A stretch of DNA of 8,387 bases from Candidatus Iainarchaeum sp. (GCA_030649345.1 JAUSKK010000013.1:1-8387), one strand, 5' to 3'. Shown: positions 201 to 8,387, numbered from the stretch's first letter. The notes: generated from the letters alone by a model not told the origin. Translations and numbers: made by a program.

Positions 201-344
201 ATGAAAACAGGAAAACAAAAAATAAATCAAATAAAAAAAGTCAGTAGTAAAGAAATGAACTTAGTGGAACAAGCTCAAAGTCAAGGTCTTTGGCAGTCGT
301 GTCTTTATCAACAGCCCTGTCTTTTTGGCGAACATTGTAATTAA
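201..344 (+). CDS. 47-aa small ORF MKTGKQKINQIKKVSSKEMNLVEQAQSQGLWQSCLYQQPCLFGEHCN*. Unknown function; candidate leader or translational-coupling ORF for the operon
   Basis: Hand translation: ATG 201, TAA 342-344. Strong SD GAGGTGG at 189-195, 5 nt before the ATG, as good as any SD in the window. Overlaps the next gene's TTG start (325) by 20 nt. Lys-rich N-terminal half. C-terminal tail has three L-aromatic...Cys units (LWQSC, LYQQPC, LFGEHC). Confidence 0.5.
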   Translation: MKTGKQKINQIKKVSSKEMNLVEQAQSQGLWQSCLYQQPCLFGEHCN

Positions 345-1110
345 AGTCGGTGGTTCTTGTCTTAAAACAAAACAAGACTTTGAACAAGTCAGTCGAAAAA
401 TAAAAAATTTAATTCAAAAAGGACTGCGTCCTATTTTAGTTGTTTCAGCGGTTAATGGCACAACCAATAGTTTATTGAATATTTTACCGGATTCACAAAC
501 CAAAAAAGAAAACGAATTGCGGGACTCTGTTTTAGCCGAAGGGGAAATTTTAAGTGCTAAAATTCTTGCAGCTCATTTATCCAATCATCAAATTTTAACT
601 GAAACTATTTTGCCCAATGATTCAAATTGGTTTATTGTAACCAATAATCAACACGGGGATGCTGAGATTTTAGCTAATATTACTGAGAGAAAAGCTCAAA
701 AAGCATTGAATGTTTTATTGGCTAAAAATATTGTGCCTGTAATACCGGGTTTTATTGGAATTACTTTAAGTGGAAAACTCACTACTTTGGGCCGCGGTGG
801 TTCGGATACTACTGCCATTGCGATTGGTAATGCTCTTCACTGCAAAGAAATTATTTTGCTAAAAGATGTTGAAGGCATATGTGCTGTGGACCCTAAGAAA
901 AACAAGAATGCTAAAGTTATTTCCAATTTAAGTCCAAGCCAAGCCATTGAAATTTCGTTGAATGGCGGAAAAGTAGTTCATCATAAAGCTTTGGCATTAA
1001 AACGCCAAGTTTCCATTCGCGTTGTTAGCAAAGATAAAGAAAATATTTTGTCAGGTGGAACTTTGATTGAAGGAGTTCTTGAAACTAAATTAATTATAGG
1101 GGGCAATTAA
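325..1110 (+). CDS. Aspartokinase-like amino acid kinase, catalytic domain only (261 aa, no C-terminal ACT domains)
   Basis: Aspartokinase-type motifs: IVIKVGGS (N-terminal KxGGS), LVVSAVNGTTNSLL, AEGEILSAKILAAHL, PGFIG...TLGRGGSDTTAIAIG, LLKDVEGICAVDPKK, GGKVVHHKAL, GGTLIEG near the C-terminus. TTG start with no SD. Stop TAA 1108-1110 abuts the next ATG. Full-length aspartokinases are about 400-470 aa with two ACT domains. Confidence 0.8.
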   Translation: MANIVIKVGGSCLKTKQDFEQVSRKIKNLIQKGLRPILVVSAVNGTTNSLLNILPDSQTKKENELRDSVLAEGEILSAKILAAHLSNHQILTETILPNDSNWFIVTNNQHGDAEILANITERKAQKALNVLLAKNIVPVIPGFIGITLSGKLTTLGRGGSDTTAIAIGNALHCKEIILLKDVEGICAVDPKKNKNAKVISNLSPSQAIEISLNGGKVVHHKALALKRQVSIRVVSKDKENILSGGTLIEGVLETKLIIGGN

Positions 1111-1887
1111 ATGTTAGGAAAACAAATTCGCTTGAAACGGATTACCAAAAAAGGAAAAGCAGTTATTATTCCTATGGATCACGGAACTACAGAAGGGCCT
1201 ATTCCTGGTTTAGAAAACATGGAAAAAATGGTGAAAAAAATTGAAAAAGGAAAAGCCACAGCAATCCTAGTTCATAAAGGTATTTTGCAAAACTTAAACC
1301 ATGTGCCCAATTGTGGTGTAATTCTGCATTTGTCGGCATCCACTAAATTAGGTCAAGATCCAGAGCATAAAGTTTTGGTGGCCAGTGTACAAGAAGCGAT
1401 TCATTTGGGTGCTGATGCTGTTTCCATTCATGTAAATATTGGGGGAAATATTCATGAAAACAGTATGCTGGAATCTTTGGGAAAAATTTCCAAAGACTGT
1501 CTGGAAAATCAAATTCCCTTGCTGGCTATGATGTACCCTAGAGGCAAAAATATTGCCAAAATTGATCCGGAAACAATTTCGCATATAGCTAGAATTGGCG
1601 GAGAATTGGGTGCAGATTTAGTGAAAACGGTTTACACTGGAAATGAAAAGTCATTCAAAAAAATTGTAGATAGTTGTCCTGTGCCTATCGTAATTGCCGG
1701 CGGCCCAAAATGTTCGACGGATCAAGAAGTATTGGAAATGGTGAAAGGAGCAATGAATGCAGGTGCAATTGGAGTATCTTTAGGACGAAATGCATTTCAG
1801 CATAAAAATCCTGTGGCCATGGTTCGTGCGATTCGAGAAATTGTTGTAAAAAATGCAGAAGTAAAAGATGCATTGGAATTGATGTGA
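1111..1887 (+). CDS. aroA': 2-amino-3,7-dideoxy-D-threo-hept-6-ulosonate (ADH) synthase, DhnA-family class I aldolase (archaeal-type step 1 of shikimate pathway)
   Basis: DhnA/class I aldolase motifs IIPMDHG, GADAVSIHVN, LLAMMYPRG, GADLVKT (Schiff-base Lys region), VIAGGPK, GVSLGRN. Lies directly upstream of DHQ synthase II. G-rich SD AGGGGG at 1098-1103. Context argues against a glycolytic FBP aldolase, but sequence alone does not exclude it. Confidence 0.8.
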   Translation: MLGKQIRLKRITKKGKAVIIPMDHGTTEGPIPGLENMEKMVKKIEKGKATAILVHKGILQNLNHVPNCGVILHLSASTKLGQDPEHKVLVASVQEAIHLGADAVSIHVNIGGNIHENSMLESLGKISKDCLENQIPLLAMMYPRGKNIAKIDPETISHIARIGGELGADLVKTVYTGNEKSFKKIVDSCPVPIVIAGGPKCSTDQEVLEMVKGAMNAGAIGVSLGRNAFQHKNPVAMVRAIREIVVKNAEVKDALELM

Positions 1888-2833: not shown

Positions 2834-3925
2834 ATGAATATTGTATTAACTGGATTCATGGGCTGTGGAAAAACTACGGTTGGAAAAGCTCTTGCTGAAA
2901 AAATAAAAAAAAGATTTATAGACACTGATGAATTGATTCAGAAAACTGCAGGAAAAACAATTTCAGAAATCTTTGCGGAACAAGGGGAAAAAAAATTTCG
3001 AAAATTGGAATCCAAAACCATTTCTCAGGTAAGCAAATTGGATAACCAAGTAATTGCTACTGGCGGAGGTTCTGTGTTAAATCCTGAAAACTTAAAAGTA
3101 TTAAATCGCAATGGTGTAATTTTATTTTTGAACACTAGTAACGATGTTATTTTGAAAAGAATTGAAAATCAAAAGAATCGACCATTGATGTCTGTGCAAA
3201 ATCAAAAAAAACAAGTTCAGAAATTAATGAAAAAACGAATGCCGTTTTACACACAAGCAGATTATATTTTAGATGCCAATTGTTCAATAACTGAAATTGT
3301 AAATGAAATACAGCGATTGCTTTGCAATCTCCAAGTATGCACAACTGTAACCAATAAAAAAGAACTGGCAAAAGCACTTGAATTTGAAACAGATTTAATT
3401 GAATTACGTTTAGATCAATTGCATGAAAACTTGAATGAACTGATAACCATATCGAGTGTTCCAGTAATTGTAAAAGTGCAATTTTTGAATCAATTACCTG
3501 AAGTCATTCGTTCACCTGCCGCTATTGTGGATTTGGATATTGAACAAGCAGATGATTTTGCAATTCAACAAATTCGAAGAAAACAAAAATTAGTATTGCT
3601 TTCATTTCACGATTTTCAAAAAACACCTTCCCTTGCTCAATTGACTAAAATTTTGAATCAACAAATGCAGAATGCAGATATTGGGAAAATTGTTACGTTG
3701 GGAACTAACACAGAAGACATTGATGCCATTATTGGTTTGCTAAAAATTGCAAAGAATGCCGGTTTTCCTTTAATTGCATTTTTAATGGGCGAATCTCAAA
3801 AACATACACGTACATTAATGTGCTTGAAGGGAAGCCTGCTTACGTACGCTCATGTAAACCAACCACTCGCAGTAGGGCAATCTAGTTTACAAGAACTGAA
3901 ACAAAAGGAGGCTTGCAGTGTCTGA
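2834..3925 (+). CDS. aroK/aroD: Bifunctional shikimate kinase (P-loop AroK type) / 3-dehydroquinate dehydratase type I (AroD) fusion
   Basis: N-terminal half: Walker A GFMGCGKTT, IDTD, FRKLE, ATGGGS, NRPL (AroK motifs). C-terminal half from about nt 3326: DLIELRLD, LLSFHDF.KTP (catalytic His), ADIGKIVT (Schiff-base Lys). One uninterrupted frame with no internal SD or start at the junction. I prefer ATG 2834 (SD GAGG at 2822-2825) over the ORF-track TTG at 2813. Confidence 0.88.
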   Translation: MNIVLTGFMGCGKTTVGKALAEKIKKRFIDTDELIQKTAGKTISEIFAEQGEKKFRKLESKTISQVSKLDNQVIATGGGSVLNPENLKVLNRNGVILFLNTSNDVILKRIENQKNRPLMSVQNQKKQVQKLMKKRMPFYTQADYILDANCSITEIVNEIQRLLCNLQVCTTVTNKKELAKALEFETDLIELRLDQLHENLNELITISSVPVIVKVQFLNQLPEVIRSPAAIVDLDIEQADDFAIQQIRRKQKLVLLSFHDFQKTPSLAQLTKILNQQMQNADIGKIVTLGTNTEDIDAIIGLLKIAKNAGFPLIAFLMGESQKHTRTLMCLKGSLLTYAHVNQPLAVGQSSLQELKQKEACSV

Positions 3926-4775
3926 AGAAAAAATTTTTGGATTAATCGGAGAACACATTCAGCATTCTTTGTCTCCGGCAATTCATAATCACGCTTTTCA
4001 AAAAATTGGATTGAATGCGCATTATATTTTACTGGACACTCCAAAAAATAAACTTATTAAAACCATTGAACTAATTCGACAAACTCCAGTTACTGGTGGA
4101 AATGTGACTATACCATTTAAAACAGAAATAATAAATCATTTGGATCAATTAGATCCAAGCGCGCAAACTGTGGCAGCTGTGAATACCTTTGTGAATGAAA
4201 AAGGAAAATTGACTGGATACAATACCGATGGATTGGGTGCCATTAAAGCTATTCAGACTAAGTTAAATCCTAAAAATAAAGTTATAACTATTTTAGGCTG
4301 TGGCGGTGCAGGCAAAGCCATTGCTCATAGCTTGCAGTTAGCTGGAGTTTCTAAAATTAATTTAATGGATTTAAATAAAACAAAAGCGTGTGAATTAGCT
4401 AAAAAATTAGAAGAACATTCTAAACACAAACAAATTACGGTTGTAATTAATACTGAACAAGAATTACTGAATGAATTGAAAAAAACAGATATTTTGATTA
4501 ATTGCAGTCCAATAGGCATGAGTCCAAATGCGGATGATTCGCCTATTTCAAAACAATTATTGCATTCCAGTTTGACTGTTTTAGATATTGTCTACAATCC
4601 AATTCAAACAAAATTAATTACGGACGCAAAAAAACTTGGCTGCACCGTGATTACTGGTGAAAAAATGTTATTCGAACAAGCGTTAGCTTCTTTTGAAATT
4701 TTTACAGGAAAAAAAGCACCGCGTTTAGAAATGCTGCAAGCACTTGAAACGGAGTTGAAACGGAATGGAAATTAA
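3918..4775 (+). CDS. aroE: Shikimate 5-dehydrogenase
   Basis: Motifs HSLSPAIHN, GGNVTIPFK, GYNTDG, Rossmann GCGGAGKA. GTG start with SD AAGGAGG at 3905-3911. 8-nt overlap with the upstream gene. Confidence 0.92.
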   Translation: MSEEKIFGLIGEHIQHSLSPAIHNHAFQKIGLNAHYILLDTPKNKLIKTIELIRQTPVTGGNVTIPFKTEIINHLDQLDPSAQTVAAVNTFVNEKGKLTGYNTDGLGAIKAIQTKLNPKNKVITILGCGGAGKAIAHSLQLAGVSKINLMDLNKTKACELAKKLEEHSKHKQITVVINTEQELLNELKKTDILINCSPIGMSPNADDSPISKQLLHSSLTVLDIVYNPIQTKLITDAKKLGCTVITGEKMLFEQALASFEIFTGKKAPRLEMLQALETELKRNGN

Positions 4776-6042
4776 ACTTAAGTCTTCAGGTGTTTGTGGA
4801 AAACTAAATGCACCTTCTTCTAAAAGTCATACGCATCGCGCTATTCTTGCAAGTATTTTATCTGAACAAAAAACAACAGTGATTAATCCTTTGACTTGTG
4901 ATGATACTTTGATTTCACTTAAAATTGCAAAAGCATTAAATGTGCAAGTAGAAAAACAGAAAAATAATCTTTGTTTTAGTCGTGAACAATTTCAAACAAA
5001 TCAGACAAAAATTAATTGCCAAGGTTCTGGAACAAGCTTACGTTTTTTTACCCCTGTGTGCAGTTTGGGAACAAAACCTATGACTTTGACTGGCAATACT
5101 TCTTTGCTAAAAAGACCTATGGGTGATTTGATAATTGCTTTAAACACAATTGGAATTAGCTGTAAATCTATTGAAAATAATGGTTTGCCGCCTATTTTTA
5201 TTCAACCTGGAAAAATAAAAGGAGGTTCAATTGAAATTTCAGGAATGATTAGTTCGCAATTTATCTCAGCACTATTGTTTATAGCACCATTTGCTGAAAA
5301 TCCAACCAGAATTAATGTTATTGGTAATCTTGAATCCAAGCCGTACGTGCAAATGACTTTAGATGTATTGCATGAATTCGGAATTCGAGTTGTGCAGTCT
5401 GAAAATTTAAATCATTTAATAATTTCAGGGAATCAATCGTTTAAAAGTCATGCGATTCAAGTAGAAGGCGATTATTCTTCAGCTGCATTTTTGCTAGCTG
5501 CCGGTGCCCTGACTGGAAAAGTAATTGTAGATAATTTACTTAAACAATCCAGTCAAGGTGACAAACAAATTATTGAACTATTGAGCGAAATGAATGCACA
5601 AATTAAAGTAAATAAAAATAAAGTTCAAGTAGAAAAATCAGACCTGAAAGGAATTAACATTAATGTAGAAAATATTCCGGATCTAGTTCCAATTTTAGCA
5701 GTTCTTGGAACTCAAGCGCAAGGGAAAACAATAATTGAAAATGCAGCTAGATTGCGATTTAAAGAAAGTGACAGATTAAATGCCATTTGTACTGAACTCC
5801 AAAAAATGGGTGCTCAAATTGAAGAAAAACAGGATTCTTTGGTGATTTACGGGAAAACAAAATTAAAAGGTGCAAAAATTAATTCGCATGAAGATCATAG
5901 AATTGCCATGGCGTGTGCAATTGCTGGCTTGACAGCTAATGGAACTACAAAAATTCAAAATGCGGAATGTGTAAGCAAAAGTTATCCTTTGTTTTTTTCA
6001 GATCTTGAAAAAATTGGCGGTGAAATGGAATGCAAGAATTAA
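4765..6042 (+). CDS. aroA: 3-phosphoshikimate 1-carboxyvinyltransferase (EPSP synthase)
   Basis: 425 aa. LNAPSSKSHTHRAIL (archaeal-like N-terminal motif), LKRPMGDL, KESDRL, HEDHRIAMA. 11-nt overlap with aroE. Confidence 0.94.
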   Translation: MEIKLKSSGVCGKLNAPSSKSHTHRAILASILSEQKTTVINPLTCDDTLISLKIAKALNVQVEKQKNNLCFSREQFQTNQTKINCQGSGTSLRFFTPVCSLGTKPMTLTGNTSLLKRPMGDLIIALNTIGISCKSIENNGLPPIFIQPGKIKGGSIEISGMISSQFISALLFIAPFAENPTRINVIGNLESKPYVQMTLDVLHEFGIRVVQSENLNHLIISGNQSFKSHAIQVEGDYSSAAFLLAAGALTGKVIVDNLLKQSSQGDKQIIELLSEMNAQIKVNKNKVQVEKSDLKGININVENIPDLVPILAVLGTQAQGKTIIENAARLRFKESDRLNAICTELQKMGAQIEEKQDSLVIYGKTKLKGAKINSHEDHRIAMACAIAGLTANGTTKIQNAECVSKSYPLFFSDLEKIGGEMECKN

Positions 6043-7115
6043 ATAAATTGCGTGAAAAAATTGATGAAATTGATTCGGACCTAATAAAATTACTTGGAAC
6101 TCGTGCTCAGGTAAGCAAAGAAATTCTGAAAATAAAACAAAAGAAAAAATTAACTGTTTTAGATCCTGTTCGAGAAAAAAAGGTAATTCAACATTGCATT
6201 ACCTTGGCTAAAAAAGAAGGGATTGAAGAAGAAGTAATTTTGCCAGTGATTCAACAAATCTTGAATTTATCTAAATCAATTCAAAAACCAAAGATAACTG
6301 TTGTAGCTATTCAAGGAAAGCAAGGTAGTTTTAGTGCTTTATTGGCTAGTAAACTTTTCATTAAAACAAAGTTATTGGAAGAAGAACAATTTGAAGAAGT
6401 AGTTGAATATGTAGAAAAAAATATTGCTGAATTTGGAATATTGCCAGTTGAAAATTCAACGACTGGCAGAATTCAAGGAAATATTGAATTATTGGTAAAT
6501 GCGAATATTGCAATTACTCAAGAAGTAGTATTGCCTGTGAATCATTGTTTGATTGCTAAAGGAAAATTGTCTTTAAATCAAATAAAACAAGTATACGCGC
6601 ATCCGCAAGCATTGTTTCAATGTAAGAATTTTTTGAAAAAATTAAAAAATGCTGAAATTATTGCATTTAATGATGGTGCGGCTGCTGTAAAAAAATTGGA
6701 AAAAAAAGGTACTGCTTTGATTGCCAGCAAAGATATTGTTCGACATCACAAAGTTGCAATTGTTCAAGAAAGCATTCAAGATTCTGCTGTAAACCAAACA
6801 AAGTTTTTTGTTGTCCAAAACAGTAAAAATATGAGCTTAATTGGCACTAAAACAACTATTTTGTTTACAGTGTCTCATAAAACAGGTGCTTTGATGCGTG
6901 TTTTGAATGTATTTGCTCAACATAAAATAAATTTGATGAAATTGGAGTCTATTCCTTTAACTGGAATGCCTTGGGAGTATTTATTTTGGGTTGACTTGGA
7001 AGGAGATTTGACTAATAAAAATATTGCAAATGGAATAAAATTAGCAAAACAAAATTGTGGGATTTTGAAAATATTGGGAAGTTATAAAACACTTAAATTG
7101 GAAAATGAGGTATAA
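6030..7115 (+). CDS. pheA: Bifunctional chorismate mutase (AroQ type) / prephenate dehydratase with C-terminal ACT domain (P-protein)
   Basis: N-terminal LREKIDEIDSDLIKLL...R...K...DPVRE (AroQ). PDT core VAIQGKQGSFS, LPVENSTTG, VYAHPQAL, NQTKFFVV. ACT region GALMRVL...ESIP...YLFWVDLEG. SD GGTGA at 6019-6023. 13-nt overlap with aroA. Confidence 0.92.
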   Translation: MQELNKLREKIDEIDSDLIKLLGTRAQVSKEILKIKQKKKLTVLDPVREKKVIQHCITLAKKEGIEEEVILPVIQQILNLSKSIQKPKITVVAIQGKQGSFSALLASKLFIKTKLLEEEQFEEVVEYVEKNIAEFGILPVENSTTGRIQGNIELLVNANIAITQEVVLPVNHCLIAKGKLSLNQIKQVYAHPQALFQCKNFLKKLKNAEIIAFNDGAAAVKKLEKKGTALIASKDIVRHHKVAIVQESIQDSAVNQTKFFVVQNSKNMSLIGTKTTILFTVSHKTGALMRVLNVFAQHKINLMKLESIPLTGMPWEYLFWVDLEGDLTNKNIANGIKLAKQNCGILKILGSYKTLKLENEV

Positions 7116-7117
7116 AA

Positions 7118-7852
7118 ATGGAAATTGGAATTATTGGATTTGGGCGATTGGGCCAATTGCTGGCAAAACATTTAGCTAAACGCAATACTGTTTTTGTTAA
7201 TGATCGCAAAAATAAAAAAAGTTTAGTTCGCAAACTAAATGTGACTCAAGTGTCTGTTCAAGAATGTGCTAAAAAAGAAATGGTTTTGCTTTGCGTGCCT
7301 ATATCTCAACTAGAGTTTGTTTTGCAAAAATGTAAAAATTATTTTAAAGCCGGTTCTTTAATTATGGATACGTGTACTGTGAAACAATTTCCTTGTGCAG
7401 TTATGAAAAAAGAAATTCCAAAAAACTGTGAGATTGTAGGAACTCATCCTTTGTTCGGACCGGACAGTGCAAAAACAACTTTGAAAAACCATTCGATTGT
7501 TTTATGTCCTGTGCGAATTAAAAAAATTAAAAAAGTTAAATTGTTTTTTGAAAGACTTGGGCTTAAAGTGATTATTGCGAGTCCTAGAAAACACGATCAA
7601 GATATGGCCCGATCTGTTTGTTTGCTGCATTTTTTAGGAAAGGCTTTGAAAAAATTAAATCTAAAAAAAGTTCAATTAAGCACGCCTACGCATCAAGATT
7701 TAATTAAACTACTTTCTATTGTAGAAAATGATTCCAATCAATTGTTTCAAGATATGCATGTTTTTAATTTATTCTCTAAAAAAATTCGACAAAATTTGAT
7801 GAATGAACTCCGAATTCTTGATCAAACTTTGAATACAAAGGTGATTTCATGA
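7118..7852 (+). CDS. tyrA: Prephenate (or arogenate) dehydrogenase, short form without ACT domain
   Basis: N-terminal Rossmann IGIIGFGRLG and the TyrA-type motif GTHPLFGP. SD GAGGT at 7107-7111. Substrate preference cannot be read from the sequence. Confidence 0.82.
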   Translation: MEIGIIGFGRLGQLLAKHLAKRNTVFVNDRKNKKSLVRKLNVTQVSVQECAKKEMVLLCVPISQLEFVLQKCKNYFKAGSLIMDTCTVKQFPCAVMKKEIPKNCEIVGTHPLFGPDSAKTTLKNHSIVLCPVRIKKIKKVKLFFERLGLKVIIASPRKHDQDMARSVCLLHFLGKALKKLNLKKVQLSTPTHQDLIKLLSIVENDSNQLFQDMHVFNLFSKKIRQNLMNELRILDQTLNTKVIS

Positions 7853-8387
7853 CTTTTTCGTTTGGAACTTGTTTGAAAATGAAGTTATTTGGAGAAAGTC
7901 ATGGGCCTTGTGTTGGAGTAACGATTGAAGGTTTTCCTGTTGGTATTAAAATTAAGTTAGATCAAATACAAACTGAATTGGATAAACGCAAGCCAGGACA
8001 AAGTTTGTTGACTACCCAACGAAAAGAGCTAGACCAACTTGAAGTGCAAAGTGGTTTGTTTGAAAATAAAAGTACTGGTTCACCCATTACTATGTTAGTC
8101 AAAAATCAGGATAACATTTCAGCTCACTACGATGAACTAAAAATTACGCCTAGACCTGGACATGCTGATTTTCCTGCTCAAGTAAAATACAATGGATTAA
8201 ACGATCATAGGGGTGGAGGAATTTTTTCAGGTAGAATGACTGCAGGAATAGTCATGGCTGGAGCTTTAGCTAAACAATTACCCGAAATGCAAGGAATTCA
8301 AATAACTACTTACATAAAACAAATTGGATCCATTCGATCTGAAAACAATCAAGGGCTTACGCTGGAAATGGAAAAATTAATTTTGAA
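7849..8387 (+). CDS. aroC: Chorismate synthase, 5' portion (continues past the window end)
   Basis: Not in the ORF track. Hand translation from ATG 7849 (ATGA overlap with the tyrA stop, SD AAGGTGA at 7838-7844): MTFSFGTCLKMKLFGESHGPCVGVTIEG...RKPGQS...RPGHADF...HRGGGIFSGRMTAG. GESHG and RPGHAD are chorismate synthase signatures. No stop through 8387. Confidence 0.92.
   Translation, partial: MTFSFGTCLKMKLFGESHGPCVGVTIEGFPVGIKIKLDQIQTELDKRKPGQSLLTTQRKELDQLEVQSGLFENKSTGSPITMLVKNQDNISAHYDELKITPRPGHADFPAQVKYNGLNDHRGGGIFSGRMTAGIVMAGALAKQLPEMQGIQITTYIKQIGSIRSENNQGLTLEMEKLIL

Follow-up and report, generated by a model that had tools for sequence, protein, structure and literature searches.

We analysed an 8,387-nucleotide contig of Candidatus Iainarchaeum sp. 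(GCA_030649345.1, JAUSKK010000013.1:1-8387; hereafter the window, by which we mean this whole stretch) and the gene that opens its aro operon. This gene, ask (325–1110, + strand), encodes a protein of 261 amino acids that is probably a working aspartate kinase consisting of the catalytic domain only; on the evidence of sequence comparison and a predicted structure, it would belong to an archaeal lineage of aspartokinases (Ask) that reside in aro operons of the 2-amino-3,7-dideoxy-D-threo-hept-6-ulosonate (ADH) pathway. The window has a G+C content of 33% and comes from a metagenome-assembled genome (MAG) labelled Candidatus Diapherotrites archaeon, in which the deposited annotation of the ask product is 'hypothetical protein Q7S92_01700' (MDO8427904.1). 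The operon is tightly packed, with ten genes counted and all sizeable open reading frames (ORFs) on the + strand. The ask stop codon, a TAA at 1108–1110, directly abuts the ATG at 1111 of aroA′ (1111–1887, +), which encodes a 258-residue ADH synthase (ADHS). The shared strand, the abutting junction and the packed or overlapping genes suggest that ask and the aro genes are co-transcribed.

ADH synthase uses L-aspartate semialdehyde (ASA) and DKFP (6-deoxy-5-ketofructose-1-phosphate), and the ACT domains of aspartokinases mediate feedback by lysine and threonine. In the mechanism that we propose, the ask product would phosphorylate L-aspartate to beta-aspartyl phosphate, Asd (the product of asd, a gene outside the window and presumably located elsewhere in this genome) would reduce this to ASA, and the ADH synthase encoded downstream would condense ASA with DKFP. 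Both ACT domains are gone from the ask product and therefore it would not be controlled by Lys or Thr binding to them; insensitivity to feedback is likely. How strongly the operon is expressed and how much substrate is present would then determine the precursor supply, and the output of the enzyme would go mainly to aromatic biosynthesis.

A candidate catalytic-domain-only aspartokinase

Profile searches identified a single AA_kinase domain (PF00696) in the ask product, spanning residues 4–233 (E = 1.4e-44, 153 bits, model positions 3–230 of 234), and the Pfam scan returned no ACT domain. The 23 best NCBIfam matches are all aspartate kinase models, led by NF005159 (E = 9.1e-58, model positions 1–257 of 406). 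The protein scores under the curated whole-protein cut-offs (196.2 versus 379 bits for NF005159 and 193.1 versus 208.7 bits for TIGR00657) because these models include the ACT half, which has no counterpart here. Five motifs are present, at residues 7 (KVGGS), 39 (VVSA), 154 (TLGRGGSDTTA), 189 (DPKK) and 245 (GTLIEG). In an alignment with 11 relatives, the C terminus lies 11 residues past the GTLIEG strand; ten of the relatives run on for ~150 residues that form their ACT domains, whereas P0015, the eleventh, is also a short protein. We found no ACT-coding sequence 3′ of the kinase domain in the window, where 0 nt separate ask from ADHS, versus 438–603 nt in 17 other linked loci.

An AlphaFold2 model of the protein, built on a 12-sequence alignment, was predicted with high confidence (predicted local distance difference test 91.6, predicted template-modelling (TM) score 0.90), with disorder confined to residues 257–261. 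The top 34 Foldseek matches in the Protein Data Bank (PDB) are aspartokinases, the best being 5yei from Pseudomonas aeruginosa (TM score 0.84, root-mean-square deviation 2.2 Å), and PDB sequence matches are limited to the catalytic halves of aspartokinases (5yei 1–234, 3aaw 1–246 and 3c1m 121–303). We defined conserved positions as those with at least 85% conservation in ~209 Ask kinase domains. The window Ask retains 37 of 40 in one count and 38 of 41 in a second, including K7, G9, G10, S41, T47, E74, F143, R157, G158, G159, S160, D161 and D181. The retained motifs are the K-x-G-G loop, the S/T of VVSA..T, the E of GE, the F of PGF and R-G-G-S-D; from the structures of Escherichia coli aspartokinase III and the Methanocaldococcus jannaschii enzyme, we take these positions to contact the ligands. 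From the fold and the retained residues, we infer that the protein is catalytically active.

The possibility that the ORF encodes a different amino-acid kinase (acetylglutamate, LysW-aminoadipate, glutamate-5, isopentenyl phosphate or uridine monophosphate (UMP) kinase) seems negligible. Those families are naturally ACT-less and ~250–290 amino acids long, so that length and single domain would fit; the NCBIfam models for ArgB and isopentenyl phosphate kinase match weakly (2.3e-12 and 4.5e-9, respectively), and further down, the Foldseek list includes structures of isopentenyl phosphate kinase, UMP kinase and acetylglutamate kinase. However, aspartokinase profiles match at 1e-57 versus 1e-12, more than 40 orders of magnitude ahead of every other amino-acid-kinase subfamily, and all function-named proteins among the best 120 relatives listed are aspartate kinases. 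The protein also falls inside the archaeal Ask tree, keeps the conserved Ask positions, and has ACT-less relatives that are followed by asd. Assignment to the aspartokinase subfamily is thus supported by sequence profiles and the modelled fold alike. The initial annotation, made from the DNA alone, had described a 261-residue aspartokinase with the full motif set and no ACT domain; all of this is borne out, and best homology to another kinase subfamily, which would have spoken against it, was not found by profiles, PDB sequence matches or Foldseek.

A split enzyme, in which the ACT-less protein is a catalytic subunit that receives feedback in trans from a separate ACT-only regulatory protein analogous to the beta subunit of alpha2beta2 aspartokinases, is highly improbable. 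In its favour, the window protein falls in the short class, of which the solved members are alpha2beta2 or related to it (5yei, 3aaw), and ACT-only beta subunits exist in that class. Against it, the alpha chain of known alpha2beta2 enzymes keeps its own ACT domains. Neither the window nor the locus of an ACT-less relative (L094, 17 kb read of a 21-kb contig) contains a stand-alone ACT ORF, the sole ACT domain being on PheA, and the small ORFs upstream of ask have no ACT or other Pfam match. These small ORFs (47 amino acids in the window and 75 in L094) were considered as the split-off ACT part and rejected, as they have no Pfam match and are not homologous to each other.

The start of ask has features of its own. 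The gene begins with TTG and has no Shine–Dalgarno (SD) sequence. The 47-residue upstream ORF (201–344, +; MKTGKQKINQ...CLFGEHCN) overlaps this TTG by 20 nt, has a perfect SD sequence (GAGGTGG, 189–195) and is also a gene call in the Logan record of these reads. It has no homologue among the fetched loci and no Pfam match; it may be a translational-coupling or leader ORF, possibly driving ask translation. In L094, the non-homologous 75-residue ORF (6042–6269) holds the equivalent position and overlaps the ACT-less ask by ATGA. It contains RLVLPVLVREKLGL...LEGDRVIIKK and looks AbrB/SpoVT-like by eye only, with no Pfam match at E <= 0.001.

ACT-less relatives and the linkage of ask to aro genes

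Among the matches listed in a first homologue search, only full-length, ACT-bearing Ask proteins appeared (~388–448 amino acids, at most 44% identity), from Nanoarchaeota, Korarchaeota, Bathyarchaeia and Nitrososphaerota. In other samples, we found homologues that lack ACT domains and end at a stop codon of their own (L093, L094/L095, L096 and L007). The best match in an exhaustive search of 1.84 billion representatives, P0247, comes from a different sample, is 253 amino acids long and 50% identical to the window protein, and has its own stop codon. It lies on a 1.1-kb contig after the 3′ end of tyrA and overlaps, by ATGA, a following ORF that starts MISVAVLGVT; this start matches the Asd N terminus of L096 and L094, and the ORF is probably asd. 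A profile search seeded with the window Ask and P0247 gave two more. The first, P0401 (259 amino acids), is encoded on a 21-kb contig whose genes run trpEGDCBA, a 75-residue ORF, ask, asd, ADHS, 3-dehydroquinate synthase II (DHQS II), aroD, aroE/aroK, continuing with 5-enolpyruvylshikimate-3-phosphate (EPSP) synthase/aroC, pheA, tyrA and an aminotransferase. The second, P0405 (256 amino acids), is likewise followed by asd and heads an ask-asd-ADHS-DHQS II operon as P0401 does. A further ACT-less copy, P0015 (267 amino acids), ends against a convergent lipoprotein gene. These other ACT-less proteins retain 38–41 of the 41 conserved positions.

In a neighbour-joining analysis (200 bootstraps), the window Ask fell inside the archaeal Ask. 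The tree paired the window protein with P0247 (98.5% bootstrap) and united P0401, P0405, P0256 and P0257 in a clade (99.5%); the two groups joined in only 1% of bootstraps, and P0015 grouped with full-length proteins (99.5%). Within the limits of a distance tree, this suggests that the ACT region was lost separately at least three times. Given that its nearest relative shares only 50% identity with the window protein and likewise lacks ACT domains, the loss would be old, and the gene has persisted from then on.

We surveyed the genomic neighbourhoods of ask and of ADH synthase genes. A scan of species-representative genomes listed at least 80 ask loci (20 archaeal and 60 bacterial); in a tblastn search of these loci, ask adjoins ADHS/DHQS II in 9 of the 20 archaeal versus 0 of the 60 bacterial loci listed. 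Two of the linked loci, from one MAG of Thaumarchaeota and another of an unclassified archaeon (L008 and L009), have asd between; the others, from Borrarchaeum (L010) and Bathyarchaeia (L011, L014, L015, L018, L019 and L022), do not. No such linkage was seen in sampled methanogens or haloarchaea among the loci listed. In a survey of JGI metagenomes, 44 ADH synthase loci had at least 2.6 kb of upstream sequence. An ask gene lies upstream on the same strand in 17 (with asd between in seven and ask directly adjacent in ten), asd alone in one (L101) and neither in 26. None of these 17 ask genes is ACT-less, and the ACT-less form is therefore rare. In L101 (4928–7868), asd-ADHS-DHQS II stands without ask and its upstream neighbour is an unrelated minus-strand gene; asd alone can thus be recruited to the aro operon.

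The full-length proteins closest to the window Ask (L002, L004/L005, L088, L089 and L091) are encoded in ask-asd-ADHS-DHQS II(-aroD-aroE...) operons, with ask products of 404–441 and asd products of 340–349 amino acids. Overall, ask(-asd)-ADHS-DHQS II operons recur in DPANN, Thaumarchaeota, Bathyarchaeia and one Asgard MAG. Neighbour-joining trees of Ask, ADHS and DHQS II agree in putting the window next to one and the same DPANN group; because the Ask tree tracks the other two, we favour co-inheritance as one module over chance adjacency. Full-length Ask proteins that head aro operons (L002, L004, L008–L011, L015, L018, L019, L022, L088, L089 and L091) share with the window Ask their lineage, their position 5′ of ADHS-DHQS II and their presumed role, but differ in being 388–441 amino acids long and in having ACT domains; the closest of them, from DPANN, also have asd before ADHS. 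The ACT domains that they retain could possibly sense aromatic end products. Many full-length aro-lineage Ask proteins of ~415 amino acids, among them P0004, P0006 and many from Bathyarchaeia, have no precomputed Pfam ACT match, and their C-terminal regions may be very divergent ACT domains or something else.

The linkage bears on whether this is simply the sole, housekeeping Ask of a small genome, serving lysine, threonine, methionine and aromatic needs and standing at the head of the operon by chance. DPANN genomes are small, ask is single-copy in many genomes and a related organism carries ask-asd-thrB-thrC (L090), all of which would fit; nor was a second ask of this MAG found, although no search aimed at one was possible. 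Against chance placement, the aro linkage is conserved over four archaeal groups and the Ask tree follows those of ADHS and DHQS II. Where a long contig exists, a separate ask is found in a lysine operon: in one Bathyarchaeota locus (L011, 1175–15000), a complete-looking lysine operon, dapA-dapB-ask-asd-lysA-dapF, diverges from an aro operon that begins with another ask, so that two pathway-associated paralogues share a locus. An enzyme supplying lysine and threonine synthesis could, moreover, ill afford to lose its Lys/Thr-sensing domains. We regard the housekeeping explanation as unlikely.

These comparisons also sort the claims of the initial annotation. Its view that the enzyme supplies ASA to the ADH pathway gains comparative support from the recurrent ask(-asd)-ADHS-DHQS II operons and from the two ask genes of L011. 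The phylogeny that it had called for puts the window protein inside archaeal Ask, with ACT loss recurring in the lineage, and co-localisation of ask with aroA′/aroB′ is indeed recurrent in both neighbourhood surveys. It had not known the linkage as a described feature of the ADH pathway. The linkage is not peculiar to the window: public genomes show it widely, and the Ask concerned is nearly always full-length and ACT-bearing. This partly goes against the initial annotation, which had named an already widespread arrangement among the findings that would refute it. The arrangement is nonetheless undescribed in the papers found; in the full-text literature, with partial coverage of subscription journals, we found none tying the ADH/DKFP pathway to an operon-encoded aspartokinase. 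The abutting stop and start codons had been taken to exclude a truncation artefact. The two codons do abut, but this argument is weak alone, and it is the ACT-less homologues from other samples that give the stronger support. The absence of asd from the window had been overlooked. The observation as such is confirmed and its interpretation as a whole is partly supported; that the enzyme is dedicated and Lys/Thr-insensitive is what we infer.

The ask–ADH synthase junction and the missing asd

The Logan assembly of SRR13727527, for which the reads are those that also gave the MAG contig, matches the junction base for base. A GGGGG SD-like motif for ADH synthase (1099–1103, +) lies within the last ask codons, which encode GGN*, 7 nt 5′ of the ATG at 1111. 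When we compared positions 1081–1113 with the relatives L002, L004, L088, L089 and L091, the SD sequence of ADHS fell within the final codons of the gene upstream in each. In the relatives, that gene is asd, with GGAGGG in its LEG* end at the same distance as GGGGG in the GGN* end of the window ask; the 3′ ends read CTG GAG GGA TAA and ATA GGG GGC AAT TAA, respectively. The SD-bearing tail of ask may reflect a deletion or an old rearrangement at the junction, but the match is too short to serve as proof.

Several observations weigh against a working, catalytic-domain-only enzyme that feeds this operon. There is no asd within the 8.4-kb window, and asd lies right after ask both in the other three ACT-less loci whose downstream sequence can be read (one of these asd genes being probable) and in the closest ACT-bearing DPANN relatives. 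A search for Asd homologues, with contig look-ups of the best unnamed candidates, gave only sequences from other samples. Three conserved positions are changed in the window protein (D48N, G89Q and A173C), its terminal branch is the longest in the Ask tree, and ask alone in the operon combines a non-ATG start with the lack of an SD sequence. Among 5.8 billion protein clusters, only two members of the window clade are known. In solved aspartokinases, oligomerisation depends largely on the ACT domains, and within the same literature coverage we found no paper on the stability or activity of a lone aspartokinase catalytic domain.

Some of these points would be expected of a decaying remnant, in which a single deletion of ~1.5 kb took the ACT domains together with the whole of asd and left a stub without a role, the first steps of the pathway being broken or bypassed. 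The ask-asd-ADHS order in all closest ACT-bearing relatives, the resemblance of the window ask 3′ codons to the SD-bearing end of their asd (as a deletion junction would leave), the TTG start without SD sequence, and the long branch with its three substitutions all speak for it. On the other side, the ORF is intact with 38 of 41 conserved positions, the predicted fold is confident and complete, and the 50% identity to an ACT-less nearest relative argues that the loss is old and that the gene was retained. The ratio of Ask to ADHS rates is no different from the range seen in L088 and other intact relatives, and the window Ask branch is no outlier when scaled to the ADHS and DHQS II branches. 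In 10 of the 17 linked loci, ask is directly 5′ of ADHS without asd, which is placed elsewhere; as this order is the commoner one in the wider family, the absence of asd here need not mean a broken pathway. A joint deletion of ACT domains and asd was accordingly downgraded: P0247 is ACT-less yet followed by a probable asd, and ask-ADHS without asd is common. Decay seems quite unlikely to us, and a working catalytic-domain-only aspartate kinase remains the probable reading.

The remaining operon, known systems and implications

The genes downstream of ask fit an aro operon of the ADH pathway. ADH synthase matches TIGR01949, NF005556 and Pfam DeoC (1.5e-56) and passes both curated cut-offs (318.4 versus 299.45 bits for TIGR01949 and 339.8 versus 241 bits for NF005556). 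It is followed by aroB′ (1897–2823, +), encoding a DHQS II of 308 amino acids (Pfam DHQS 6.2e-96, 321.7 bits). This match spans model positions 64–344, about the first 60 being missing, and the NCBIfam equivalogs score under their cut-off (300 versus 392 bits) because the N terminus is ~60 residues shorter. Such a short DHQS II (303–308 amino acids, with 303–306 in the relatives) is common to the window and its DPANN-like relatives (L002, L004, L088, L089 and L094). No 3-deoxy-D-arabino-heptulosonate 7-phosphate synthase and no type I dehydroquinate synthase occur among the ten ORFs of the window, and neither a tRNA nor an Rfam element lies within it.

Next in the operon is a fusion gene whose product joins an AroK-type shikimate kinase to a type I 3-dehydroquinate dehydratase (2834–3925, +; Pfam SKI 3.6e-49, residues 16–168; DHquinase_I 3.3e-26, residues 181–364). 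We placed its start at the ATG at 2834, which has a GAGG SD sequence; the mechanical ORF begins at a TTG at 2813. Archaeal shikimate kinases are usually of the GHMP type, and this one is of the AroK (P-loop) type. L089 has an AroK-type kinase as a separate gene, and L094 has aroE-aroK and EPSP synthase–chorismate synthase fusions. Then follow aroE for shikimate dehydrogenase (3918–4775, +; Shikimate_dh_N 3.5e-26, SDH_C 1.3e-09), aroA for EPSP synthase (4765–6042, +; EPSP_synthase 2.9e-116), a pheA-type gene for chorismate mutase/prephenate dehydratase with a C-terminal ACT domain (6030–7115, +; CM_2 8.4e-19, PDT 3e-49, ACT 2.1e-4) and tyrA for prephenate dehydrogenase (7118–7852, +; PDH_N 1.5e-18). 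The last gene, aroC (7879–8387, +), is cut by the contig end and encodes the N-terminal 169 amino acids of chorismate synthase (MKLFGESHGPCVGV...; PF01264 in the Logan gene call); the fragment shares 47% identity with the aroC portion of L094. The MAG contig and the Logan assembly of the same run (L097) end at the identical base, 8387, inside aroC, which suggests a repeat or a drop in coverage there; a further break in the Logan assembly falls at window position 5706.

Canonical LysC-type Ask enzymes (5yei, 3aaw/3ab2, 3c1m, 2j0w and 2cdq) have the same catalytic fold and conserved positions as the window protein. To our knowledge, those with solved structures all carry at least two C-terminal ACT domains, which serve both to bind Lys or Thr and as the oligomer interface, whereas the window protein ends 11 residues past the last strand of the catalytic domain. 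The short Ask of Thermococcales resembles it in being shorter than the canonical 400–470 amino acids. The models for that group, TIGR02078 ('putative Pyrococcus aspartate kinase subunit', 327 positions) and NF006234 (338 positions), match the window protein at E = 6.7e-34 and 1e-39, under their cut-offs (117.7 versus 242.4 bits and 136.7 versus 237 bits), and are 65–75 positions longer than it. The Thermococcales genes are, we presume, linked to threonine genes, not to aro genes. That literature likewise yielded no paper reporting an ACT-less aspartokinase or its activity.

The nearest concept is Ask_Ect of bacterial ectoine clusters, for example that of Pseudomonas stutzeri A1501, in which a paralogous ask is co-transcribed with an ASA-consuming pathway (PMC5924519). 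Feedback on Ask_Ect is relaxed relative to the housekeeping Ask, yet the enzyme is still inhibited by threonine and keeps its ACT domains, and the clusters are usually without asd (PMC5924519). The logic that we propose for the window Ask is the same, with the ASA supply secured under the control of the consuming pathway; unlike bacterial Ask_Ect, the window Ask is archaeal, lacks ACT domains and would feed a primary pathway, that of the aromatic amino acids. A second comparison concerns the downstream enzymes. GriI and GriH, homologues of ADHS and DHQS II, make 3-amino-4-hydroxybenzoate (3,4-AHBA) from ASA and dihydroxyacetone phosphate (DHAP) in Streptomyces, and no ask is mentioned for the ahb cluster (PMC10179220). 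The BagB and BagC models match the window ADHS and DHQS II at 7e-60 and 1.3e-49, far under their cut-offs, and the window ADHS passes the cut-off for ADH synthase instead. GriI/GriH serve bacterial secondary metabolism.

A broader proposal stands evenly balanced in our judgement: that Ask and Asd would be integral, operon-encoded first enzymes of the ADH pathway in DPANN, Thaumarchaeota, Bathyarchaeia and Asgard, where the Lys/Thr-sensing ACT domains would be dispensable and would have been shed at least three times, giving the first natural catalytic-domain-only aspartokinases. We know of no characterised aspartokinase without ACT domains for regulation and oligomerisation. A conserved natural enzyme consisting of the catalytic domain only would be a minimal aspartokinase, and a ready-made, feedback-free variant for study of the lone fold or for engineering. 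Many archaea may encode their own Ask, and often Asd, in the aro operon, in which case the gene set of the pathway would grow by two steps. Reconstructions of DPANN and other MAGs easily take ask and asd as signs of lysine, threonine or methionine synthesis, and the operon context says that this can be wrong; if our reading is true, these genes would in reduced archaeal genomes mark aromatic synthesis instead. Repeated loss of ACT domains, in aro-linked copies only, would then be a natural experiment in which a regulatory domain is discarded when an enzyme moves from a branched to a dedicated pathway.

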